The notes beneath the pieces were generated by a model. It was not told the origin of the DNA, did no database searches, and saw nothing but the letters and a program-made list of their open reading frames with translations. A stretch of 64,000 nt of DNA from Dehalococcoidia bacterium (GTDB lineage: Bacteria; Chloroflexota; Dehalococcoidia; Lucifugimonadales; VXLM01), in the NCBI GenBank assembly GCA_963665745.1, contig OY762443.1, forward strand, positions 611,616 to 675,615, written 5' to 3'. Below are positions 39,999 through 51,293 of this stretch, one piece after another. Every line of letters starts with the position of its first letter. Positions within the stretch are counted from its first letter, which is position 1. A program made the translations under genes and the position numbers.

Positions 39999-41255
39999 AT
40001 GAAGCGACCTCGACGAAAGCTGCATATTCGACGCTGGGCGGCGTCTTTCGCGCTCGCGGTGCTGCTGGTGCTGCCGAGCGGGGACCGGCTGCACGTCACT
40101 CCCGCGCTGGACGTGGCGTCCGAGCACGCCTTCTCGCTGGTGCAGTGGCACATCACCAACTTCTTCGGCAAGTGGGCACATCTGGCGCGAGAGACGATAC
40201 CCGGCCAGAGGCCCACGCGCGAGGAGCGTATCGCCATCGTTGACGAGTACCTTCAAACGTCTCGGCTGGCGGAGAAGGAGGAGCGCCTGATCGAGGGCCG
40301 TATCGCCAGGGCGGGCGGGGCGAACAGCGCGAAGGGAACGGTCATCTCGCGTGAGTACTTGGACGAGCTACTGGGGCATCAGCGCGGGCTGCGTCCCAAG
40401 GCGGAGGAGGCCGTCGAGTCGGAGTTGAGCGCCGTCCTGCACGACCAGGGTTTCGGACTGTGGGGAGACGCGCTCTTCCCGCCCGTGGACATTCGGTTCG
40501 GCCACCTGCCGACCATCATCGTCACCTCGCGCCGGGACAAGATCGCGCGGGTCGAACGGCGGCTGCTCCGTCCTGAGCTTGAGTACATCGAACGGGGCAG
40601 GCTGGAGGACGAGCTTCTTGAGCAGTACGACCTCTCGGCCATCGTGGGGAACCTGGCGGGGCTGTCGACGTACCCGACGCTGGTGACGGACACCGACTCG
40701 CTCCGCTCCGTCCTGCGCACGGCGGCCCACGAGTGGCTGCACGTCTACTGGTTCTTCCGTCCGTTCGGTCAGGCATTCTGGATGTCGGAGGAGATGGCGA
40801 CGCTCAACGAGACGGCGGCGGACATCGCGGGGCGCGAGTTGGGAGACGAGACGTTCGCGCGGATGGGCGGCGATCTCACGGAGAATGCGCGGCGCTACCT
40901 GCCACAGGAGGAGCGCGACCCGCGATTCACCCGGATGATGCGCGAGACGCGGCAGCGCACCGAAGAGCTTCTGGCCGAGGGCAAGGTGGCGGAGGCCGAG
41001 GAGTACATGAAAGAGCGGTGGTGGCTCATGCGGCTGGGCGGCTACGGGATACGCAAGCTCAACCAGGCGTACTTCGCCATGCACGGCATCTACGGGGAGA
41101 GCGTGACCTCGGTCAGCCCCATCGGCGACGAGGTGGCGGAGTTCCGAACGTATTTCGCCAGCACGGGGGATTTCATCAGGGCGTTGAACGGGGTGTCGAC
41201 CTACGGGGAGTTTTTGGAGCGGCTGGGGGAGAAGCGGGGGAGTCTGTATCGGTAG
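39999..41255 (+). CDS. membrane-anchored hypothetical protein with an HEXXH motif (putative Zn-metalloprotease)
   Basis: N-terminal anchor WAASFALAVLLVL, and a single HEWLH at TAAHEWLHVYW. No other family signature was recognised. Confidence 0.45.
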   Translation: MKRPRRKLHIRRWAASFALAVLLVLPSGDRLHVTPALDVASEHAFSLVQWHITNFFGKWAHLARETIPGQRPTREERIAIVDEYLQTSRLAEKEERLIEGRIARAGGANSAKGTVISREYLDELLGHQRGLRPKAEEAVESELSAVLHDQGFGLWGDALFPPVDIRFGHLPTIIVTSRRDKIARVERRLLRPELEYIERGRLEDELLEQYDLSAIVGNLAGLSTYPTLVTDTDSLRSVLRTAAHEWLHVYWFFRPFGQAFWMSEEMATLNETAADIAGRELGDETFARMGGDLTENARRYLPQEERDPRFTRMMRETRQRTEELLAEGKVAEAEEYMKERWWLMRLGGYGIRKLNQAYFAMHGIYGESVTSVSPIGDEVAEFRTYFASTGDFIRALNGVSTYGEFLERLGEKRGSLYR

Positions 41256-41285
41256 GCTCCCCACACTCCCATCCTCCGTCCCGAC

Positions 41286-41395
41286 TTGACACCACAGAAC
41301 GTATGTCCTATCATATCCACATGCGGCAATCCGAACTACCCCCGAACTTTACAATAACAAGCAAAATGTCCCAAAATGTCACACCATGCCACAAA
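41286..41395 (+). promoter_or_regulatory. repeated module A: near-consensus promoter plus three phased 10-bp direct repeats
   Basis: TTGACA (41286-41291), a 17-nt spacer, then TATCAT (41309-41314). Downstream lie ATGTCCCAAA, ATGTCACACC and ATGCCACAAA at 41366-41395. The module aligns by eye with the reverse complement of 49117-49221. Confidence 0.5.
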
Positions 41396-41491
41396 TTTCG
41401 CGTTTCCCCATGGTTATCGTAACGTTGTCGGGCTCCGTGTCAGCCCGCCCCGTGAGCGACTCCCCTCCCCTCGGTCAGCGCGACGGTCTGC

Positions 41492-41508
41492 GTTCGCGGG
41501 AATGACGG
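41492..41508. repeat. REP family 2 half-copy (GTTCGCGGGAATGACGG)
   Basis: Right arm only of the family 2 hairpin. Confidence 0.5.
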
Positions 41509-41698
41509 TGCGGGTCGGGGGATTTCACCCTCTTGCGAAAAGGCCTGTGGTATTATATCCGCGCTCTCTAGCACAGAGTTTCATCCACCATTCGACATGC
41601 ACATGTGCAGGGGCGGCCTCCGGGCCCCCTTGATGTGCATGTCTGTGGAACGGCGACTTGTGCTAGAGAAGCCAGTCCTTGCCACAAGGGGGCAACTG

Positions 41699-44158
41699 AT
41701 GAAAGTCATCGCCGTTGTTCTAGTATCTCTAGTCGTAGTCGTTGCAGTGGGGGCGGCGACCGTCCGCTTCGTTAGCGGGCAGACCGACGGCGACACATCC
41801 ATACCTCTCGAAAACCCGGCGATTCCTCCCGATTCCGTCGGCGGGCCGGGGCCTCTCCTGATACCGCCGGAGATGGCGGACTCCTCCTCCGCGACGGAAC
41901 AGGCTGGGCCCGTCGTCGCTTCCTCATTGAGGAGCACAAGCACGGACCAGCCATCCGTGAGATTCTCGACCGAGAAGCAGTACATGCTTGGTCTCATCAA
42001 CGCGGAGCGAAAGAAGGCAGGGGTACCGGAAGTCTCGCTGGGCGACAACAACGCGGCGCAGATACACGCCGAGAACTCAATAAATGACTGCTTTTCGGGC
42101 CACTGGGGCACGGATGGACTAACTCCGTACATGAGGTACTCGCTCGCCGGCGGCTACCAGTCGAATAGCGAAAATGTTTCAGGATCCGACTATTGCATAA
42201 CAGACGAAGAAAGACCTTCGTATCGTCGCATACAGAGTGTCCAAAGCGAACTGCGCGAAATCATGGACGGATTAATGAACAGCCCCGGACATAAAAGAAC
42301 CATCCTGTATCCATGGCAACGGAAGGTGAACCTGGGGCTTTCGTGGGATACGTATCAGATGTGGGCCGTGCAGCATTTCGAGGGGGACTACGTCGATTGC
42401 AACGTTCCGCCGACGATAGAAGGGACGACGCTGCGGGTGAGCTGCACTGCGAAGGAGGTGTTCCCGTCCAACTCCTACGTGCAACAAATTTACTACGACT
42501 CTCCCCCTCACGCGTTGACGCGGGGGCAAATCGCTCGGAGCTACAGCTATGGACCAGGGAATACGGTGGCGCTGCTGAGAGGACCGGCTGGGGAGGGATA
42601 CCACTGGCCGACCAACGAGACGGAAGTTACGCACTATTCCGGGTGTACTCCTTACGACATCGACCCGGCCGCGCAGCCGCCCTCGTCATTTGACGAGGCG
42701 ACATCGCTGCACAGCGAAGCAAAGCTCTGTGAGCCTACCGAGACGACCGTTACAGTGCCGTACATAGACGGAGAGGAAACGATAAACGGGCGTTCTTTCA
42801 CGCTCTCGCACGATATTGGGAGTGTGCTGAGCCAGCACGGCAGCGGGGTGTACACGCTTCGTGTATTGGGCTGCTCGGTAGAGGACTCAATAGACAACCC
42901 GTGCGATGACGATAACAGAATGACGATCCTCCGAAAGTCCATCTTCTATGGGATCGATCCACCGGACACGTACACGCCGGCACAGACGTCTCCGACCACG
43001 CCTACGCCTACGGCGACACCGGTTGCGGCTTCGACCGCGCCCGCGCCGCGAGTGGCGTGCGGCTCTGCCGTAACGGATACGTCCAATACGGCGCTGGTGG
43101 CCGACTGCGAGTATCTGCTGGGCATGAAGTCGAAGCTCCGCGGCAGCGCGAAGCTGAACTGGTGGTCGGGCCGTTCGCTCGACAAGTGGGACGGCATAAA
43201 GGTTCAGGGAGGCCGGGTGACCGAGTTGTCGCTCCCCAGCCGAAACCTCGACGGCATCATCCCCGTGGGCATCGGCAATCTGTCGGCGTTGAAGACGCTC
43301 GACCTGAGCTCCAACAGCCTGACGGGGACGATACCCGCGTCGCTGAACAACCTGACCGCTCTGACCAAGTGGCGGCTCGCCGGCAACAGCTTGAGCGGAT
43401 GCGTGCCGGCCAACTTCGCCCAAGTGAGCGACAACGACGCTGCGAGCCTGAACCTGTCCACGTGCGGCGGGTCGGGTCCGGGGCCGACACCGGTTCCGAC
43501 ACCCACGCCGACGCCCACTTCGACATCGGGCGTAGATGACACGACGACGCTGCTTGCCGAAGGCCATTGCAAACAGGGGGATCTTTCCCAGGCCCTGGGC
43601 GGGACGTACACGCGCACGGATTTCTCGCCGTTCGTGAAGTACGACGTAAACGGATGGGGGCTGTACGCGTTCGCGAAGTCCGAGTGGGAGAAGGACGACG
43701 ATTCCGACAAGACCGTCTACTGCTTGACCGTCCTCTACGACAACGTGGGCAGCGCGGTTCTTGACACCTCGTACGACAGGATGAGGCGCTTGGTGGAAGG
43801 AAGTCTCGACGTACTGGGACAGAAGAAGGTCCGGGATCTGCCGGAGATTGGGCATGAGTTCATGGCCTTGCACATCCAGCTTGGGAACGCCGACGTGGAC
43901 GGTGATCGCTGGATCAATGAGAGCGATCTGGATGCCGTTCCTTGGGGAGGCACGACCATCGCCATGCTGCGACGGGGAGCTTTAGCCGTCTTCGTTAGCG
44001 AAGCGAGTTGGGGTCCTGAATACGCGGATAGGCGTCCGCCTGCCGTGGATGGAGTCGTCACAATATCGCGGCGGATCGACGCCCGGCTTGTTGACGCACT
44101 CTCGGAGAGCGCGTATGGGGGCGCCACCACCGACATCGGCGTGAAGGACGGGAGGTGA
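41699..44158 (+). CDS. membrane-anchored multidomain protein: CAP/SCP/PR-1 domain, plant-type LRR module and unknown C-terminal domain
   Basis: ORF 41597..44158 trimmed to ATG 41699, after AAGGGGG (MKVIAVVLVSLVVVVAV). The CAP block reads LINAERKKAGV..L..N..AQ.HA......C.SGHWG.DG...NSPGHKRTIL. Pro/Thr linkers flank LVADCEYLLGMKSKLRGSAKLNWWSGRSLDKWDGIKVQGGRVTELSLPSRNLDGIIPVGIGNLSALKTLDLSSNSLTGTIPASLNNLTALTKWRLAGNSLSGCVP. Confidence 0.75.
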   Translation: MKVIAVVLVSLVVVVAVGAATVRFVSGQTDGDTSIPLENPAIPPDSVGGPGPLLIPPEMADSSSATEQAGPVVASSLRSTSTDQPSVRFSTEKQYMLGLINAERKKAGVPEVSLGDNNAAQIHAENSINDCFSGHWGTDGLTPYMRYSLAGGYQSNSENVSGSDYCITDEERPSYRRIQSVQSELREIMDGLMNSPGHKRTILYPWQRKVNLGLSWDTYQMWAVQHFEGDYVDCNVPPTIEGTTLRVSCTAKEVFPSNSYVQQIYYDSPPHALTRGQIARSYSYGPGNTVALLRGPAGEGYHWPTNETEVTHYSGCTPYDIDPAAQPPSSFDEATSLHSEAKLCEPTETTVTVPYIDGEETINGRSFTLSHDIGSVLSQHGSGVYTLRVLGCSVEDSIDNPCDDDNRMTILRKSIFYGIDPPDTYTPAQTSPTTPTPTATPVAASTAPAPRVACGSAVTDTSNTALVADCEYLLGMKSKLRGSAKLNWWSGRSLDKWDGIKVQGGRVTELSLPSRNLDGIIPVGIGNLSALKTLDLSSNSLTGTIPASLNNLTALTKWRLAGNSLSGCVPANFAQVSDNDAASLNLSTCGGSGPGPTPVPTPTPTPTSTSGVDDTTTLLAEGHCKQGDLSQALGGTYTRTDFSPFVKYDVNGWGLYAFAKSEWEKDDDSDKTVYCLTVLYDNVGSAVLDTSYDRMRRLVEGSLDVLGQKKVRDLPEIGHEFMALHIQLGNADVDGDRWINESDLDAVPWGGTTIAMLRRGALAVFVSEASWGPEYADRRPPAVDGVVTISRRIDARLVDALSESAYGGATTDIGVKDGR

Positions 44159-44229
44159 CACCAGCTCCTTGACACCCCGTTGAGCAGGCTCCTACACTCT
44201 CCGCCGACGTTTCGGAGGGGGGAACGCCC

Positions 44230-44865
44230 ATGGCCCTGACGGTCTACGACTACCGGACCGACGTGCGCAGTGTGCTGGTTACGCCGCAGATACGGTCGCG
44301 GTTCATGCGGCTGGAGGCGGGCGAGGCGGCTGAGCCGCACTCCCACGATCTCGGGCACGAGATATTCCTCGTGCTGGACGGACGGGCGGAGTTCACGATA
44401 GACGGGGAGACGGGCGAGGTCGGGCCGGGGCAGATGTGCGTCGCGCTCGTGGACCAGCTCCACTCGCTCCGCGTGCTCGGCGACAAGCCCATGACGATGT
44501 ACCTGTCGGTGACGCCGCACATCCAGCCGACTCACACGATGTGGACGCCGGAGGGCGAGCGGATGCCGCACCGATTCGCGTCGTCCACCGCCTACGACGT
44601 GGAGACGGACACGACGACCCCGTTCGGCGACCTGCTGGACAGGCTGACGGCTGCGACGCTGGCCGTCCGAGAGGCAGCCGACCTGGCGGCAGGGAAGCAG
44701 TCCGACGAAGCGGAGGCGCTGAAGACCGCCGTCGCAAGCGGCGACCTCGATTCGGCGTCCGCGTCCCGGAGCGACGTATGGGACGCGCTGTTCGAAGTCT
44801 ACCGGCGCTCAGCCGAGCTCGCCGACCTGTGGAACGACGTCGCCCCGCGAGCGGGAAGGACGTGA
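44230..44865 (+). CDS. cupin-domain protein
   Basis: The cupin motifs are PHSHDLGHEIFLVLDG and GPGQMCVAL...HSLR. Confidence 0.7.
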   Translation: MALTVYDYRTDVRSVLVTPQIRSRFMRLEAGEAAEPHSHDLGHEIFLVLDGRAEFTIDGETGEVGPGQMCVALVDQLHSLRVLGDKPMTMYLSVTPHIQPTHTMWTPEGERMPHRFASSTAYDVETDTTTPFGDLLDRLTAATLAVREAADLAAGKQSDEAEALKTAVASGDLDSASASRSDVWDALFEVYRRSAELADLWNDVAPRAGRT

Positions 44866-44873
44866 GGAGCGAC

Positions 44874-45950
44874 ATGGACCCCGTACGCATAGGCGTCGTC
44901 GGGTGCGGCGCGATCGCGCAGATCCACCACCTTCCGTTTCTCACCGAGCTTGCGGAGGAGTTCGAGGTCGCCGCCGTCTGCGACGTGTCGCCTTCTGCGG
45001 TCGAGTACGCGGCGAAGCTCTTCCACGTCCCGAACCGCTTTACCGACTATCGCGAAATGCTCGACTCGGATATCGACGCCGTGCTGATGTGTCACTTCGA
45101 CCCCAAGACGGAGGTCGCCGTGGCCTCGTTGAACGCCGGAAAGCACGTGTTCGTGGAGAAGCCGGTCTGCTACTCGAACGCGGAGTTCGCCGAGATTGCC
45201 GAGGCCGTGAAGCGTTCGGACAAGGTCGCGCAGGCGGGCTACATGAAGCTGTACGAGCCGGCTTATGAAGCGGCTAAGCCTGAGATCGAGGGGATGGACG
45301 ATATCCGCTTCGTCCAGGTCAACCACCTGCATCCCGACAACGATCTGCACGTTCGCCAGTTCAGGACGCGGTCGTTCGACGACGTACCCGCGGACGTGAC
45401 CGAAAAGACGAGGGCCGCGCGGCGACTGGCCGAACGCCAGGCGATAGGGGACGTTCCGCCTCACATTCTCCGGGCTTTCAGCACGGTTGCGGGCAGCATG
45501 ATCCATGACCTGTACGGGCTGCGCGACCTGTTCGGGACCCCGAGCAGGGTCATTAATACGGAGATATGGCAGGACGGCGGGGCGATCTCCACCACGCTGG
45601 AGTACCCGGAGGGCGTGCGGTGCGTGGCGACGTGGGTCGACCTGCCCGATCTGTGGGATTTCTACGAGACGCTTGAGGTGTACGGTAGCAGGAAGCGGGT
45701 GATCGTGTCGTACCCGACGGGCTTCTCCCGCGAGGTGGCGCAGGTGAGGATCCATGAGATCGACGATGACGGGGCCACGATTGCAAAGGAGCCGGCCGTG
45801 GACTGGGAGAGTCCGTTCCGCAGGGAGCTGCGCCACTTCCACGACTGCATCGTCAACGGCAAGACGCCGAGGTCGGCGCTCATCGACGCGGGGCAGGACG
45901 TCGCCCTCGTGATCGACATCGTGAAGACGTATCTCGATGGGGGTGGCTAG
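44874..45950 (+). CDS. Gfo/Idh/MocA-family NAD(P)-dependent oxidoreductase
   Basis: ORF 44436..45950 trimmed to ATG 44874, after GAGGAG. IGVVGCGAIAQIHHLP..HVFVEKP. Confidence 0.85.
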   Translation: MDPVRIGVVGCGAIAQIHHLPFLTELAEEFEVAAVCDVSPSAVEYAAKLFHVPNRFTDYREMLDSDIDAVLMCHFDPKTEVAVASLNAGKHVFVEKPVCYSNAEFAEIAEAVKRSDKVAQAGYMKLYEPAYEAAKPEIEGMDDIRFVQVNHLHPDNDLHVRQFRTRSFDDVPADVTEKTRAARRLAERQAIGDVPPHILRAFSTVAGSMIHDLYGLRDLFGTPSRVINTEIWQDGGAISTTLEYPEGVRCVATWVDLPDLWDFYETLEVYGSRKRVIVSYPTGFSREVAQVRIHEIDDDGATIAKEPAVDWESPFRRELRHFHDCIVNGKTPRSALIDAGQDVALVIDIVKTYLDGGG

Positions 45951-45973
45951 GCCTTCCTGCGGCCCCGAAAATC

Positions 45974-46003
45974 TTGACTGCGTGTAGGGGCGATCCCTAC
46001 AAT
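45974..46003 (+). promoter_or_regulatory. candidate sigma70-type promoter of the yceD-rpmF-fabD-nusB-acpP cluster
   Basis: TTGACT (45974-45979), an 18-nt spacer, then TACAAT (45998-46003). Confidence 0.45.
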
Positions 46004-46055
46004 ATGTCCTTCGGGCGACGTGGGCCTATCAGATTTCGCAGGGGTCGGTGTCGTT

Positions 46056-46595
46056 ATGCACTTTAACGTTTCGCAGCTTGTTCGTGAGACCAGCGGCTCC
46101 ACCAGGGAGCACGAGGTCGAAGACCGTGTCACGTTTCGCGGCGACCTGATCGAGGTCAGGGGCGGCGTCCGGTTTGTCAGGACGGACAAGGGCGTGTGGG
46201 TGACGGCCCTGCTGAACACACAGGTGGAGTCCGAGTGCGGACGGTGCCTGGATCGCTACGTCCAGACCGTCGATATCAAGGTCGATGAGGAGGCGCTACC
46301 CCGGCTCGACCCCGTCACCGGCGTCCGATACGTCGACAACCTCGACCCGGAAGAGAACCTCGTAATCGACGAGGACAACATCCTCGACCTGACCGAGACG
46401 GCGCGCCAGTACATCTCACTCGGCCTGCCGATGAGTCCGCTGTGCCGTACGGACTGCGCGGGCATCTGCGCGGGGTGCGGCGTCAACCGGAACCATGAGC
46501 CCTGCACGTGCGTCCGCGTTCAGCGAGACAGTCGATGGGGGCCGCTCCTGGATGCCTTTCCGTCAGTCGAAACAATGAACCTGAGTAAGAACTAA
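46056..46595 (+). CDS. yceD: DUF177 / YceD-family protein
   Basis: Trimmed to ATG 46056. C-x-R-C at ESECGRCLD, and the C-terminal CRTDCAGICAGCGVN. It has the classical position upstream of rpmF. Confidence 0.8.
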   Translation: MHFNVSQLVRETSGSTREHEVEDRVTFRGDLIEVRGGVRFVRTDKGVWVTALLNTQVESECGRCLDRYVQTVDIKVDEEALPRLDPVTGVRYVDNLDPEENLVIDEDNILDLTETARQYISLGLPMSPLCRTDCAGICAGCGVNRNHEPCTCVRVQRDSRWGPLLDAFPSVETMNLSKN

Positions 46596-46677
46596 GAACA
46601 CCTTGACCGCATACCGCTCGACGGGCGACCCTGTGTAGGGCACGTTGAACGGGAGCGCGCGGAAGGACTGAACAACA

Positions 46678-46878
46678 ATGCCAGGCGGACCAGTACCAAA
46701 GAAAAAGCACTCGCGCTCGCGCCGCGGAAAGCGGGCAGCGCACCAGTTCCTCGCCGTCCCGACCCTCGTCGACTGCCCCGAATGCCCGGCCAAGATGAGG
46801 CCGCATCACGTGTGTGTCACTTGCGGGTACTACAACGGGCGCGAGATCGTGCCGAGCGAAGAGATCGAAGTCGAGTAG
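46678..46878 (+). CDS. rpmF: 50S ribosomal protein L32
   Basis: MPGGPVPKKKHSRSRRGKRAAH... plus the Zn-ribbon CPEC..CVTCGYY. Confidence 0.95.
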   Translation: MPGGPVPKKKHSRSRRGKRAAHQFLAVPTLVDCPECPAKMRPHHVCVTCGYYNGREIVPSEEIEVE

Positions 46879-46888
46879 GAGACGACGA

Positions 46889-47848
46889 TTGACGTTGCGG
46901 TTTTCTCCTCCCCCCAAAGGGACCGATACGGCGTTCCTGTTTCCCGGACAGGGGACGCAGAGCGTCGGCATGGGCGAGGAGCTGTACAACAACTCCTCGG
47001 CGGCGCGGGCCGTCTTCCACGAGGTGGACATGGCCCTCGGCCGGCCGCTGACGAGGCTGCTGTTCGAGGGACCTGACGACACGCTTCGCCAGACGGTGAA
47101 TGCGCAGCCGGCGATCATGTCGGTGAGTCTGGCGACGATGCGGGCCATGCAGGACTACCTCGGCGCGGATGCTACGCCGCGTCCGGCTCTCGTGGCGGGC
47201 CACAGCCTCGGCGAGTACACGGCGCTCGCGGTCGCGGGCGTACTGGACATCGGCGAGACGGCGTGGCTCGTGCAGGAGCGCGGCAGGCTGATGCAGGAGG
47301 CATGCGAGAAGCAGTCCGGCAGCATGGCGGCGGTCATGGGGCTGGACGCCATGGCGCTGGAGCAGATATGCCGCGAGACCGGGACGGTCATCTCGACCGT
47401 CAACACGCCGGACCAGATCGTCATTGCCGGGGAGCGTCGCGCACTCGCGAATGCGCTCGACCTGGCGAACGCTCGTGGCGCGAAGAAGGCCGTGCCCCTG
47501 CGAGTCGCGGGGGCGTTTCACTCCCCGCTCATGGAGCCTGCGCAGGCAGGTCTCATCGACGCTGTGGAGAGCCTGAAATTCAAGGACCCGTCCATCCCCA
47601 TCGTCGCCAACTGCACGGCCAAGCCCGTGACCAAGGGCGAGGACGTCAAGCGAGAGCTGATCGCGGGAATATGCAACTGCGTCCACTGGAGCCGCTCGGT
47701 GGACTACATGATGGGCAACGGCGTGAACCGCTTCATCGAGGTCGGGCCGGGCCGGGTGCTGAGCGGGATGGTCAAGCGCATCAACCGGCGGGCGGACGTG
47801 CAGGCCGTGGGCGACTGGGACTCGATCGTCAAGCTCAGCCGCAACTGA
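46889..47848 (+). CDS. fabD: malonyl-CoA:ACP transacylase
   Basis: FLFPGQGTQSVGMG, the active-site GHSLGEYTAL, and VAGAFHSPLM. The TTG start at 46889, 7 nt after AGGAG, was chosen to avoid overlapping rpmF. Confidence 0.9.
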   Translation: MTLRFSPPPKGTDTAFLFPGQGTQSVGMGEELYNNSSAARAVFHEVDMALGRPLTRLLFEGPDDTLRQTVNAQPAIMSVSLATMRAMQDYLGADATPRPALVAGHSLGEYTALAVAGVLDIGETAWLVQERGRLMQEACEKQSGSMAAVMGLDAMALEQICRETGTVISTVNTPDQIVIAGERRALANALDLANARGAKKAVPLRVAGAFHSPLMEPAQAGLIDAVESLKFKDPSIPIVANCTAKPVTKGEDVKRELIAGICNCVHWSRSVDYMMGNGVNRFIEVGPGRVLSGMVKRINRRADVQAVGDWDSIVKLSRN

Positions 47849-47871
47849 TACCCCCTCCCCCACCCACCGCA

Positions 47872-48345
47872 GTGACCTCCACCACCACACTGAACCGACC
47901 GAGCAAGGCCGTCACCCGGCGGAAGGCCCGCGTCATCGCCGTTCAGGTGCTGTACGAGGTGGACGGGTCGGATCACGAGGTGGGGAGCGCGTTGGCAGCG
48001 CGGCTCGACGATGCCGCCGTTACGCCCGACGCGGATGCGTTCACGCGGAAACTCGTGCATGGGGTACTTGCCAACAGGCGGGAAATCGATAAGATAATAG
48101 CCACGCACGCGCCGAACTGGCCTATCGAGCAGATGGCGATGGTAGACCGCAACATCCTGCGGGTCGCCATCTACGAAATCCTGATGGCCGGAGAGACGCC
48201 GCCGAAGGTCGCTATCAACGAGGCGGTGGAACTTGGTAAGATATACGGGGCCGACAGATCGCCGATGTTCGTCAACGGCGTACTCGGCGCGCTGATGCAG
48301 AACAGAGAACACGACGATACGTCGAACACCGCAACGGACGAATAG
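47872..48345 (+). CDS. nusB: transcription antitermination factor NusB
   Basis: [14 protein letters not shown]....., [35 protein letters not shown]......FVNGVLG. The GTG 47872 start is uncertain. Confidence 0.85.
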
Positions 48346-48359
48346 GGAGGAACACAACT

Positions 48360-48617
48360 ATGGCAAGTCTCTTGGAACGAGTTCAGGAAGTCGTCGCCGA
48401 CAAGCTGAGCGTTGACACCGAGGAGGTTACTCCCGACGCGTCATTCACCGAAGACCTGAACGCCGACTCGCTGGACCTGGTCGAGCTCATCATGGCCTTC
48501 GAGGAGGAGTTCGGCGACGACGACAACCCGCTCGAAATCTCCGACGAGGACGCCGAGTCCATCACCACCGTCCAGGCGGCCATCGACTACCTGCAGGCCC
48601 ACGGCGCGGGCGAGTAG
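48360..48617 (+). CDS. acpP: acyl carrier protein
   Basis: 85 aa, with the phosphopantetheine site [19 protein letters not shown]. Confidence 0.95.
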
Positions 48618-48655
48618 CGGCGGTTCCACATGATATTGGGAGCTTAGTCGAAGCG

Positions 48656-48691
48656 CCCTCACCCCAACCCTCTCCCGCGAACGGGAGAGGG
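48656..48691. repeat. REP family 1 (CCCTCACCCCAA + CCCTCTCCC-GCGAAC-GGGAGAGGG)
   Basis: Stem at 48668-48676 and 48683-48691. It lies 39 nt after the acpP stop and may act as a terminator. Confidence 0.8.
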
Positions 48692-48743
48692 GGTATGTTG
48701 ACTACACGGCAGTTATTGATACCCGGCACGGCTCCGCGCGGCC

Positions 48744-48844
48744 TTCGACAGGCTCAGGCCGAACGGGGCGTAAGGTTGCTCAGGCCGAACGGGGCGTAAG
48801 GTTGCTCAGGGCGCATGGGGCGTAAGGCTGCTCGGGGCGAACGG
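48744..48844. repeat. REP family 3 core followed by a 26-bp tandem array (about 3.5 copies)
   Basis: TTCGACAGG, then CTCAGGCCGAACGGGGCGTAAGGTTG twice (48753-48778 and 48779-48804), a variant CTCAGGGCGCATGGGGCGTAAGGCTG (48805-48830), and a partial CTCGGGGCGAACGG (48831-48844). The copies are contiguous with no spacers. Confidence 0.9.
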
Positions 48845-48969
48845 AATTGTTTTAGACACATCCTCTACAAACCCTCGTGGGTGATCTGCGTGTATCTTGC
48901 TGCGGCGGGCTTTCCCAGGGAAATGCCCGGGAGCTACGAGAACTCGACTGCTGATCCAGCGGAGACCAG

Positions 48970-49040
48970 ATGCAACATTGTGGCAACATTCGTAGGTGAG
49001 ATCTTCAAGAATTGTTGCATGGTGTTGCATTTTGTTGCAT
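48970..49040. promoter_or_regulatory. repeated module C: convergent ATGCAACA decamer repeats
   Basis: On the minus strand: ATGCAACAAA, ATGCAACACC and ATGCAACAAT at 49040-49011. On the plus strand: ATGCAACATTGTGGCAACATT at 48970-48990. The phasing and flank (TTCCCTCGTT) match module B. Confidence 0.45.
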
Positions 49041-49116
49041 TTCCCTCGTTCTAGAGGAATGCGGGTGTCACACTATGAGCTAGGTTCGTAGGAGAGATTT
49101 CTCAAAAAGCGTTGAT

Positions 49117-49221
49117 TTTGTGACGTCCTGTGACATTTTGGGACATTCCCCTCGTTATCGTAAAGTTGCTCGGCCAGTGACCGCACATACCTATTGTGGG
49201 ACATGCGTTCTTGTCTGTCAA
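49117..49221 (-). promoter_or_regulatory. repeated module B: near-consensus promoter plus three phased 10-bp direct repeats
   Basis: On the minus strand: TTGACA (49221-49216), a 17-nt spacer, then CACAAT (49198-49193). Downstream lie ATGTCCCAAA, ATGTCACAGG and ACGTCACAAA at 49146-49117. Confidence 0.5.
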
Positions 49222-49314
49222 ACCGGAGTGCGACGGAGTAACTGTTCAGTCTTCGTGAGGTGAATCGCGAAGATCCCCTCTCTGTATCTCTCCCCCGGCG
49301 GGGGCTGACAGGGG

Positions 49315-49349
49315 CCCTCACCCCAGCCCTCTCCCACGACGGGAGAGGG
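49315..49349. repeat. REP family 1 (CCCTCACCCCAG + CCCTCTCCC-ACGAC-GGGAGAGGG)
   Basis: Stem at 49327-49335 and 49341-49349. A degenerate relative lies at about 49286-49310. Confidence 0.8.
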
Positions 49350-49388
49350 GGGAGGAGAATTCCTGTATATCTCATCGACTCTGAACAG

Positions 49389-49865
49389 TTAGGCGGTCGA
49401 GTCTTGGATGCTGGGTTCCGCCTTGTTCCTTCGACGCAGGACGATGTAGGTGACGACCGTCGAGGTTATCAGGCTGAGGAGGCCGCCGATGAGGATGTCG
49501 ATGGGCACGAGGACGCCGGGCCAGGTCTTGAACATCAGGAAGATCGGCACGATGTAGGTGGCGTAGGCGGCGCAGCCGAGGACGAAGCTGTTCTTGACCG
49601 CCTTGATGAGGCTGTTCTCCTTCAGGGCAGGCTCGATGGCGAGGTAGCTGTTGCCGAGCGCGATGAGCCCGAGGAACGCGAGCAGGGCGAGGAGCTGCTC
49701 GACTCCCCACATGTCCATCTTCCTGCCGAACTCTTCGCGGAGCACGTCGTTGCCGCTGGCCTCGTAGAGGCTCTCATACATCCCCACCGCGATGGGCGAG
49801 AGGTTCCACCCCACGTCGATGACCGTGTATACAACGAATGCCGCTAGGAATCTGAGGAAGTGCAT
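49389..49865 (-). CDS. integral membrane protein (DUF2177-like)
   Basis: 158 aa with 4 hydrophobic segments. The family assignment is from memory of the N-terminal F..F..Y..ID..W pattern. Confidence 0.55.
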   Translation of the reverse strand: MHFLRFLAAFVVYTVIDVGWNLSPIAVGMYESLYEASGNDVLREEFGRKMDMWGVEQLLALLAFLGLIALGNSYLAIEPALKENSLIKAVKNSFVLGCAAYATYIVPIFLMFKTWPGVLVPIDILIGGLLSLITSTVVTYIVLRRRNKAEPSIQDSTA

Positions 49866-49919
49866 GTTGACCTCGTGGTGTGGGGTTTGGGCTATGGGGG
49901 AATTTGTATCATAGCACGT

Positions 49920-51293
49920 CTACCAAGCCAAGTCCCCTGGCGTCACATTCATCATCCTTCCGGCCTTTTGCACTTCCATCCGGCGGCGTCCCAGCTTCAG
50001 CAACTCTTCTCCTCCAGAACCCCTTAGTGCATCTCCAGGTATGCCCAAAGCCTGCAAGATTGCCACAGCGATTTGCAATGGTCCGGGAGTCACGTAGGGA
50101 TTTAGTGTGCCGGGTGGTTCTTTGGTCTCCGGCGCTATCACAAACGTATCAAGCGAAGTTCCGTCGGGAGTGATGATCTCGTCATCCTGAACTATTGGAA
50201 GCCCAAAAGCCGAGATGTGAGAAAGATAGTTTGGTAAATCAAGGAACGGAATCGTGCGCCAGACGTTTTCAATGTAAGCCTTTATATAGAACGGACCTCT
50301 CACATTTGCATGATCGACCACCATACGGTGACGCTTAATGATCCCTTCACAGGCGTCTAGCATCATATTAAGGTCTAGAATCTTGACCGATTCAAGACCT
50401 CCATTATTGAACATGGAAATGAACTCCTGGCCCGTAGAATAAATATTCCACACCTCATCGTATTCATTTGTCGACAATACTGGTATGGGAAGGGTTACAA
50501 ACGAATGACATTGACGAGAGAATTCCCATGTAAGTACACGATTATAAGGATTATTACCTGCCGTCTGTCTCGCTACGTAACCATCATGCTTGGAGAAAAT
50601 GTTGTCGAAAGGGACTGAGTTTTCTTTCATGACTTCACTGAAGTCAGTCAATTTCCCATCGTACCAATGGCCCATAACTTCATAGGGATCCGATATTATG
50701 CTGAAATGAATAAAAGGCTGATCTTCCTCGCCTTTTGAGACCGTTGGACTCTTCAGTATGCGATCCTCTAATCGCCGACGGGCCTGCTCGCCGCGCCTAG
50801 ACAAAATGTCAAAGGTAACTCGATCTGTTATTGGCCTAGGATCAGAGGAGTCTCCAATACGCACGTATATGCGGCCATCGTTATGAACATAGGGAGTATC
50901 AGGACCTTGAGGTATTTCGGCTGCGACAATTGAGCGCCCTTGCTGTAGGCCTATCGATTCAATTGGCCCTTCGAATACTCGGGTGATGTAGAACACGTGG
51001 GGATGTAGAAGGTCTTTCGCTGCGTTTCTCAAGGCTTCAAGAACTGAGGGCACATCAGAATTTGCAATGCCTGGAAAGCACTCTGCAACATTCTGTTTGG
51101 AACCACTCTTGATTCCAAGGAAATACAATCCGCCGTATTGATTAGCAAAGGAAGATAAGCTTTTTGCCAGAGCACGTGGCTTGATGATTTCGGACTTATA
51201 TTCAACGTACCAGCCTTCATAAACGTCTCTAAGTTCCGTCAAATCAGTTGGAGAAAGATCTACAAGGTTCTCGTCGAAAGGTGTATGTCTCAT
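49920..51293 (-). CDS. AlbA_2 / Schlafen-like (divergent AAA) DNA-binding domain protein with an unassigned ~300-aa C-terminal region
   Basis: N-terminus: EGWYVEYKSEI..ALAKSLSSFANQYGGLYFLGIKSG....IVAAEIPQGPDTPYVHNDGRIYVRIGDSS. The gene is clearly AT-richer than its neighbours by eye. Confidence 0.7.
   Translation of the reverse strand: MRHTPFDENLVDLSPTDLTELRDVYEGWYVEYKSEIIKPRALAKSLSSFANQYGGLYFLGIKSGSKQNVAECFPGIANSDVPSVLEALRNAAKDLLHPHVFYITRVFEGPIESIGLQQGRSIVAAEIPQGPDTPYVHNDGRIYVRIGDSSDPRPITDRVTFDILSRRGEQARRRLEDRILKSPTVSKGEEDQPFIHFSIISDPYEVMGHWYDGKLTDFSEVMKENSVPFDNIFSKHDGYVARQTAGNNPYNRVLTWEFSRQCHSFVTLPIPVLSTNEYDEVWNIYSTGQEFISMFNNGGLESVKILDLNMMLDACEGIIKRHRMVVDHANVRGPFYIKAYIENVWRTIPFLDLPNYLSHISAFGLPIVQDDEIITPDGTSLDTFVIAPETKEPPGTLNPYVTPGPLQIAVAILQALGIPGDALRGSGGEELLKLGRRRMEVQKAGRMMNVTPGDLAW

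Follow-up and report, generated by a model that had tools for sequence, protein, structure and literature searches.

The window studied here, a stretch of 64,000 nt from the chromosome of a Dehalococcoidia bacterium (GenBank contig OY762443.1, positions 611,616 to 675,615), contains two copies of a non-coding module that face each other 7.9 kb apart, module A on the plus strand and module B on the minus strand. A reading made from the sequence alone had described the module as a consensus-like promoter followed by phased 10-bp repeats, and our analysis supports that description. Unforeseen in that reading, the module appears to correspond to the promoter, leader, and start-codon region, and thus to the 5' end, of a gene family whose products resemble the small subunit of phage terminase (TerS). 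We hold this identity, a cassette consisting of the promoter and leader of a TerS-like gene family, to be very probable, and A and B read as gene-less ("orphan") copies of it. Taken as a whole, orphan cassettes with an SOS-type promoter, a TerS leader, and a pac-like recognition array are, in our judgement, probably the best explanation of the module. Below, coordinates without a prefix refer to the window, and those marked C1 refer to the single contig (3.15 Mb, 61.8% G+C) of the genome that holds it, G000.

The start region of a TerS-like gene family

Four arrays in G000 lead into a reading frame with a helix-turn-helix (HTH) motif. By tblastn and whole-genome protein searches, the corresponding family of ~150 aa was found in 15 of the 16 genomes of the genus, at 2–18 copies each. 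When 67 distinct genes were aligned with their upstream DNA, the layout was constant, with a Shine-Dalgarno sequence (SD; GGAG or GAGG) followed by repeat 1, repeat 2, and repeat 3. Repeat 1 fills the spacer between SD and start, the ATG of repeat 2 is the in-frame start codon, and repeat 3 encodes residues 4–7, which gives the family an N-terminus of the form M-x-Q-N/D-V/A/G-T/S. The start on repeat 2 holds in members that are only 33–50% identical and carry other cores (GTTAC, GTCCG, GTCAGG, GCGAC, GGAAC).

We refer to the promoter as P and to the leader with its start region as U. In U, an AU-rich box with the consensus AACTTTACRATAAC is followed by the SD (GAGG) and three head-to-tail repeats of the form ATG-NNN-CA-nn. 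The box of intact genes lies in the 5' untranslated region directly upstream of the SD and is conserved genus-wide; more divergent family members have lost it and kept the repeats. The same 8-mer recurs in three reading frames and lies partly outside the open reading frame (ORF), and the constraint on it is therefore at the nucleotide level and not a coding one. Orphan arrays hold the ATG and the CA invariant and vary in the NNN core. The tail of B1, the first unit of module B, corresponds to the degraded first ~20 codons of the gene, with early stops that differ between copies. Three of the five family genes in G000 are broken, and only a CAA-type and a TTA-type gene are intact.

Other identities were considered for these sequences and set aside. 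A coded peptide was rejected on account of the recurrence of the 8-mer in three frames and of a frame relation between the P-ATG and the repeats that varies among copies. The idea that the 14-nt box serves antitermination found little in the genome's rRNA-leader boxA (CACCTTAACAACTGG), which is only loosely similar. Resemblance to attC/integron or dif/Xer sites fails at the core sites. Iterons and ParR-type centromere repeats do not suit arrays that are chromosomal and dispersed and whose adjoining gene, if any, is TerS-like.

The encoded protein matched PF13022 (E = 1.3e-7) and five PHROG families named "terminase small subunit" (down to 1.3e-11), including phrog_2538, 3218, 7344, and 24579; searches of NCBIfam and of PDB sequences with the family protein gave no match. 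An AlphaFold model based on 35 homologues (mean predicted local distance difference test score, pLDDT, 79.5) places helices at H14-48 (the HTH) and at H50-84, the latter 35 residues long. The best fold match in the PDB was 2AO9 (probability 0.99, E = 0.06, template modelling (TM) score 0.42–0.59), which is counted as a putative nonameric small terminase (PMC7672466). As judged from sequence and model, the protein would thus combine the features of a TerS: an N-terminal HTH, a long helix after it, and similarity in both sequence and fold. L176, a distant homologue from a viral contig of 37 kb, is encoded 1.3 kb upstream of an ORF of 458 aa, which we read as TerL-like, that is, similar to a large terminase, from its Walker-A-type motif. 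The 93 close relatives found in a public protein collection are mostly nameless, and the sole source name among them is "hypothetical protein [Dehalococcoidia bacterium]".

Several observations weigh against a terminase function in this genome. The TerS-like genes are solitary, with no large terminase adjoining them in G000, and one family copy is syntenic across species, beside SRAP, ADH_zinc, and Ldh_2 genes. Searches of G000 for a large terminase or portal (PF03237, PF03354, PF04466, PF04860, and tblastn with the viral TerL) found none, and no obvious TerL was seen by eye among the ORFs downstream of other P-type promoters. With solitary genes and no TerL, packaging is not supported as its role here, and the protein could be no more than a regulator. 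Because the genes do not stand next to a large terminase, we call the proteins TerS-like and not terminase subunits.

A probable SOS-type promoter

P consists of TTGACA, a 17-nt spacer, and TAnnnT, with a GAAC-N4-GTNC box in the spacer that overlaps the -10 element. The pattern TTGACA-N4-AGAAC-N4-GT(A/C)C-TAnnnT was found 62–200 nt upstream of the start in 51 of the 67 distinct family genes, and the P pattern occurs 30 times in G000, nearly always between genes. A shared regulator had been suggested for A and B, and the spacer block that they have in common, AGAACG(T/C)ATGTCC, does look like an SOS box of the LexA type. The architecture recurs before dinB (TTGACAGACTAGAACGCACGGTCTATTCT), and lexA carries GGAACATCAGTACG just past its -10 element. 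At recA (TTGCAT-tagt-AGAACGTTTATGCTATGAT, with AGAAC and then TATGAT), only the left half of the box is clear and the right half is weak. Because the same box stands before dinB and lexA, and more loosely before recA, P is probably under LexA/SOS control. This assignment is weakened by the right half of the cassette box, GTCC or GTAC instead of the canonical GTTC, and by the looseness of the match at recA.

Known LexA boxes include CGAACN4GTTCG in B. subtilis and AGTACWNWTGTACT in cyanobacteria (PMC3091678). The sequence found here, GAAC-N4-GT(A/C/T)C, is intermediate between the Gram-positive (Cheo) and the cyanobacterial boxes; like them, it overlaps the core promoter in the cassette and occurs before lexA, dinB, and, loosely, recA. 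It differs from them in that the right half of the cassette box is mostly GTCC or GTAC and is fused to the -10 hexamer, and in that it stands, in most instances, before genes of mobile or phage origin (the TerS-like family, TnpB, methylases, and a head-gene cluster).

This head-gene cluster (C1:1312000-1324700, minus strand) appears to be phage-derived and lies behind P-type promoters. Behind one of them (C1:1324686, minus strand) come a 588-aa gene and the genes of an acidic protein of 186 aa and a protein of 290 aa. The last of these matched major-head PHROGs (phrog_267, 5e-7), with PF05065 below threshold. A second P-type promoter, at 1315854 of the contig, heads another three genes; past the 290-aa protein, the cluster includes genes of 146, 330, and 640 aa without a family match. 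The 588-aa gene had been guessed to encode a portal, a guess that was dropped for want of any Pfam or PHROG match.

P-type promoters were also seen before other genes. A 449-aa TnpB (OrfB_IS605 and a Cas12f1-like TNB domain; C1:2906608-2908003, plus strand) lies directly behind one with a GAAC-N4-GGTC box and may be SOS-wired. Two members of a second HTH family, of 257 and 283 aa (C1:180746-181519 and C1:1656924-1657775, both minus strand), are weakly TerS-like (phrog_4044, 1e-4) and have long Pro/Ser-rich basic C-terminal tails. A conserved piece of ~90 nt ("ggcccgacgcgccccggc...gacaaaatgagaa...gaaaagggg"), found at C1:730975 (minus), C1:2909840 (plus), and C1:1541300-1541440 (plus), has decamer-like repeats on one side and, at two of the three loci, a P-type promoter on the other, and may be a further variant of the leader.

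Modules A and B and the spread of the cassette

All blocks that the sequence-only reading had named in A and B were found at their positions when both strands were read. Module A as a whole occupies ~41250..41510 on the plus strand (~250 bp, boundaries approximate) and comprises P, U, a tail, and a sequence resembling repetitive extragenic palindromic (REP) elements. Its P (41286..41314; promoter scan 11/12) has TTGACA at 41286-41291, the 17-nt spacer with the block AGAACGTATGTCC, and the -10 element TATCAT at 41309-41314; the LexA-type box AGAACGTATGTCCT (41296-41309) lies inside the spacer and overlaps the -10. Between the -10 and the 5' box, the block ATGCGGCAATCC was read from the sequence. 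Then come the AU-rich 5' box AACTTTACAATAAC (41345-41358) and the contiguous decamers ATGTCCCAAA, ATGTCACACC, and ATGCCACAAA (41366-41395), whose cores are TCC, TCA, and CCA. An inverted copy of the box, read from the sequence as GTTATCGTAACGTT (41413-41426), closes a unit of ~82 bp bounded by inverted repeats. This box-bounded arrangement is repeated at C1:1081537 and C1:2790461, and other copies (L001, L005, L077) have an inverted decamer in the position of the inverted box.

Module B (49221 to 49117, minus strand) has the same blocks. Its P (49193..49221; promoter scan 10/12) is made up of TTGACA (49221-49216), a 17-nt spacer, and CACAAT as the -10 element (49198-49193), with the LexA-type box AGAACGCATGTCCC (49211-49198) again inside the spacer and overlapping the -10. 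Unit B1 has the 5' box AACTTTACGATAAC (49167-49154), the decamers ATGTCCCAAA, ATGTCACAGG, and ACGTCACAAA (49146-49117), and, 44 nt past the array, an inverted copy of its repeat core, TGTGACA (49072-49066). Unit B2, 106 nt downstream of B1, contains ATGCAACA three times (49040-49011) with AACGAGGGAA in front and no promoter of its own; it seems to have arisen by tandem duplication within the B1 tail. The B2 repeat has two inverted copies (48970..48988, minus strand), TGTTGC at 48988-48983 and TGTTGCAT at 48977-48970, which pair with the repeats in the predicted minimum-energy fold. Module B heads a gene-free stretch of ~500 bp, convergent with acpP and with no gene downstream, and would yield a non-coding transcript with two arrays and inverted copies. 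In the same gene-free stretch after acpP, a 26-nt unit (GCTCAGGCCGAACGGGGCGTAAGGTT) is present in 3.5 tandem copies (48752-48844), and pieces akin to it ("ccttacgccccgttcggcctgagc") occur elsewhere in the genome beside REP hairpins.

The likeness of A and B is significant. Their global alignment has 84 identical of 128 columns and a score of 34, compared with a mean of -13.7 and a maximum of 3 among 1000 shuffles (z = 9.9). The decamer pattern matched five times in the window and never in 100 dinucleotide shuffles, and the promoter scan picked both TTGACA-17-(-10) units.

Iterated nhmmer recovered ~43 copies of a core of ~57 nt from the genome, and a strict pattern found 40 arrays, so the possibility that no further copies exist clearly fails. 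A P-type promoter lies within 320 nt of 22 of the 40 strict arrays; 24 have the 14-nt box and five a recognisable gene tail. Several loci hold tandem units, two or three each, with a period of 97–106 nt. The arrays lie in both orientations, singly or in tandem and not as inverted pairs, and ~17 of 43 face convergent genes, a count that is approximate, like the other context counts, as the simple gene caller gave the wrong strand at some loci (1320-1322 kb, 1752.9 kb). Within the genus, 14 of 16 genomes contain the box-plus-repeat pattern, 5–37 times each, and 25 other families of the order gave no match; a reversed-pattern control gave zero everywhere. A metagenome scan with the conserved B-tail pattern returned 32 matches, all by chance and without arrays, and B-type loci came only from genomes of the genus.

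P and U are separable, and in many copies REP-type hairpins have been inserted between the two parts. The genome G011 contains at least six near-identical copies (L047, L054, L056, L058, L078, L080) of a composite repeat of several hundred bp, in the order REP, P, REP, U, a TerS-like gene truncated past the HTH ("GVNRKTGQPAP..."), and a conserved non-coding stretch of ~200 nt. On this evidence, the cassette as a whole spreads there as a non-autonomous repeat.

A and B have different histories. The gene upstream of A (39999-41255, 418 aa, stop at 41255) has orthologues 84–97% identical in more than ten relatives. At the orthologous intergenic region of L013-L023, neither P nor an array is present, and the region runs straight into the leader of the CAP-LRR gene. 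Since no relative examined has it at the orthologous site, A represents a lineage-specific insertion of ~250 bp between the 418-aa gene and the ancestral CAP-LRR leader; its closest paralogue, at C1:2790302-2790458, is 92% identical over 157 nt. The B locus, from acpP to a DUF2177 gene, is common to G000, G002, G011, and G001 and was not found in eleven other genomes. A therefore appears to be a recent insertion and B an older locus common to four species. The sequence-only reading had given weight to the inward-facing pair. This does not survive the comparison: the closest relative, G002, has B and the intervening genes and lacks A, and arrays in G000 point both ways. The inverted arrangement of A and B is best seen as a coincidence and not as a mobile unit, and the earlier caution that the unit is not currently mobile was correct.

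The ancestral CAP-LRR leader (~41530-41600), downstream of the inserted A and shared with relatives, reads "cgcgctctctagcacagag...gggcggcc(c/t)(t/c)cgggccccc" and includes a GC hairpin and the palindrome TGCACATGTGCA. REP-like sequence intervenes between the cassette of A and this leader. We infer that A puts an extra SOS-type promoter and leader ~300 nt upstream of the CAP-LRR gene, ahead of its ancestral leader.

Arrays were also observed upstream of toxin-antitoxin-type genes, namely DarT (1e-64), an MNT nucleotidyltransferase, a HicB-like antitoxin, and a PIN-domain protein, at C1:2989725-2990917 (plus), C1:81379-81813 (minus), C1:1347100-1347699 (plus), and C1:2789540-2790461 (minus). A pair of genes for a small protein and an aspartic protease stands behind arrays at C1:1277754-1278574 and C1:1287074-1287927.

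The repeat array, its possible roles, and known systems

In the explanation that we favour, LexA would bind the GAAC-N4-GTNC box of P, so that the cassette would fire on DNA damage, and U would be the transcribed leader and translation-initiation region. The three helically phased, A-tract-rich repeats would form a private recognition array of the encoded TerS-like protein, and the variable 3-bp core would be a specificity code read by its recognition helix. By analogy, the array would work much as the pac direct repeats of phage SPP1 across promoters and the start of the small-terminase gene.

The decamers do have the appearance of a protein-binding array, as had been proposed. Within an array the three cores vary in concert, being usually identical or one step apart, and arrays differ from one another. 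We read the core from codons 2, 5, and 6 in 77 public proteins and compared it with the recognition helix, G-V-x-R-x-T. At helix position 3, core CAA was accompanied by Thr or Ser in 32 of 34 cases, TCA by Arg in 14 of 16, and CCA/TCC by Lys in 8 of 9. Proteins whose C-terminal halves are at least 90% identical tend to differ in the helix when they differ in the core (odds ratio 15.3 over such pairs), and in a C-terminal-domain tree the same core-helix pairings return in different clades. Because the three repeats are uniform and associated with the helix, we prefer a protein recognition array, although we advance recognition of the repeats by the protein only tentatively.

Some points speak against such recognition. 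There are exceptions to the pairing, such as CAA with NRKT. Core and helix are encoded within ~130 nt of each other, so that recombination of the 5' module could mimic the pattern without any contact. The DNA-binding domains of SF6 TerS bind DNA with little sequence specificity (PMC4737164). The array also sits on the ribosome-binding region, which would suit control at the RNA level equally well.

The strongest alternative, which we regard as somewhat unlikely, concerns function only and is compatible with the identity of the cassette. A, B, and most other orphans would be decaying 5' fragments of TerS-like genes, and only the arrays before intact genes would be functional. Duplication, recombination, and REP-associated rearrangement would have scattered the fragments, slippage would keep the repeats uniform, and template switching would keep the inverted copies matched. 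The degraded gene start in the B1 tail, the broken family genes of G000, the truncated gene repeated in G011, the arrays that point at convergent genes, and the REP elements between P and U all fit this view. Arrays of the TCA, TCC, and CCA types are, moreover, numerous in G000 and include A and B1, but no intact cognate gene was found there, and A and B may therefore be functionless relics. Decay alone does not readily explain why the B-type unit of promoter, array, and inverted copy is kept in five species, with four copies in G011 and matched changes of the core, or why the ATG and CA of orphan arrays stay invariant while the NNN varies. A downstream inverted copy matches the core of its own array in 17 of 183 tests, compared with 9 of 1553 for other cores (odds ratio 17.6, p = 1.6e-11, a value that is optimistic because the sequences are related), and this enrichment extends over several unrelated tail classes and distances of 19, 33–36, 44, and 54 nt.

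The inverted copies also bear on an element acting as RNA, which we consider unlikely. Pairing of a repeat with an inverted copy would hide the start codon, or translation would be governed by an RNA-binding factor or by an antisense RNA in trans; the B locus, which lacks a gene, would make a leader-derived small RNA induced by the SOS response. Nine B-type units from five species share an 8-bp helix of repeat 2 with the inverted copy. Its positions are 97% paired, two pairs have changed in both arms (U-A to C-G, C-G to A-U), one unit has a U.G intermediate (G011:700k), and the observed covariation score is reached by only 8 of 500 shuffles. This helix is present in the minimum-energy folds of B1 and B2, and the inverted copies of B2 are complementary to the start region of a CAA-type gene at C1:864965. 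The coincidence of the array with the ribosome footprint, the U.G intermediate, and a B locus with a promoter and no downstream gene keep the RNA-level mechanism alive. However, the folds are no more stable than those of shuffled sequences (z = -0.15 to -1.9 for the B units, 0.04 for A), and an Rfam scan of 40500-50500 gave no match at E <= 1. A perfect inverted copy accompanies only ~10–15% of arrays; one repeat would suffice for pairing, yet all three usually share the core, and inverted sites are equally expected for a DNA-binding protein. Template switching in quasi-palindromes can, in addition, keep complementary arms matched without selection, which counts against an RNA-level role.

It is improbable that U is itself a promoter, with the box TTTACA/TTGACA as -35 and, after an 18-nt spacer, CA(A/G/C)AAT where repeats 1 and 2 meet as -10, so that the cassette would be a tandem promoter and the dispersed U units "mobile promoters". 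The scan does call TTTACA-18-CAAAAT at 41348-41377 (9/12), the T/G variation of the box fits position 3 of a -35 hexamer, and U units before unrelated genes (MNT, HicB, PIN, DarT, and the aspartic-protease pair) fit a published pattern of promoter reuse (PMC3575422). But in intact genes the transcript would then begin within repeat 2, past the start codon; divergent members have kept the repeats and lost the box; B1 has TTTACG, where the scan called no promoter; and an 18-nt spacing with a score of 9/12 is weak. Highly improbable, finally, is the earlier suggestion that A and B are the inverted ends, or relics of the ends, of a 7.9-kb composite transposon or a miniature inverted-repeat transposable element (MITE) with decamers bound by transposase: the modules face inward, have sub-terminal repeats, and some units are bounded by the 14-bp inverted box, but the A-B homology continues ~60 nt outward of the box, past the would-be terminal repeats, into P, no target-site duplications were seen at array loci, A and B vary independently, relatives other than G002 likewise have the internal genes without A, the ~40 arrays do not form inverted pairs, and essential genes lie between A and B.

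We thus return to the orphan SOS-promoter and TerS-leader cassette with its pac-like array, which appears to join known kinds of element: the SOS box, the pac-like repeat array, and promoter reuse. In SPP1 pac, direct repeats span promoters and the start of the small-terminase gene, and the bent DNA is selected by an HTH ring (PMC4737164). Direct repeats over promoter and gene start were found here as well, the repeats extending from the SD to codon 7 and P lying upstream in the 51 genes counted above. Both systems have phased A-tracts and bent DNA, and the HTH-bearing, ring-forming TerS of SPP1/SF6 has its counterpart in a TerS-like HTH protein known from sequence and model. A footprint of the pac type covers signals for both transcription and translation, and the site could thus also serve as an autoregulatory switch. 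In contrast to SPP1/SF6, the genes here are solitary chromosomal paralogues (2–18 per genome) with no TerL adjoining or detected in G000; the repeats are strictly 10 nt long, three in tandem, and placed over the start codon; the 3-nt core varies with the recognition helix, while DNA binding by the SF6 domain is almost non-specific; and dozens of arrays have no gene.

The cassette resembles the putative mobile promoters of promoter reuse (PMC3575422) in that nearly the same promoter and leader stand before non-homologous genes and have spread in genome and genus. It differs in that a translation-initiation region and its repeat array belong to the unit, that a parent gene family is evident, and that many copies head no gene. 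With REP/REPIN and MITE-like repeats (PMC8049555) it shares a short, strictly intergenic, multi-copy, and often hairpin-forming nature, and its units are concatenated with genuine REP elements; unlike them, it holds a full promoter and ribosome-binding site, has inverted arms only in a subset of copies, and shows no target-site duplications. Stand-alone chromosomal TerS-like genes under stress or SOS-type control, as proposed here, are also known from the TerS of Staphylococcus aureus pathogenicity islands and phage-inducible chromosomal islands (SaPI/PICI) and from systems of the type of the Rhodobacter capsulatus gene transfer agent (RcGTA), and the phage-derived head-gene cluster behind the same promoter type in G000 adds to the likeness. 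However, G000 yielded no island structure, integrase, or TerL, and the link between the TerS-like family and the head genes is only putative.

A bolder reading by analogy, which we think quite unlikely, is that the TerS-like proteins are SOS-induced and each has a private 10-bp "address", the 3-bp core of which would co-evolve with the recognition helix. The ~40 gene-less arrays, several of them immediately before toxin-antitoxin and defence cassettes (MNT, HicB, PIN, DarT), would then be landing pads for packaging host DNA at chosen loci through a LexA-wired phage-derived particle similar to a gene transfer agent, built from the head genes at C1:1312000-1324700, or for hijacking the terminase of an infecting phage. 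If true, this would mean addressable, damage-triggered gene transfer in sponge-type Dehalococcoidia.

For annotation, the cassette explains dozens of conspicuous intergenic repeats and warns against calling inverted pairs transposons. If the favoured explanation is true, it would provide a compact natural code of DNA recognition, in which a 3-bp core repeated three times on one helical face is read by one or two residues of an HTH helix, and it would bear on small terminases, a class whose DNA specificity is debated. The likely LexA regulon of an uncultured Chloroflexota lineage would extend to phage-derived genes, and a cassette of promoter and initiation region could leave its gene and seed SOS-type promoters before host genes, here the CAP-LRR gene.

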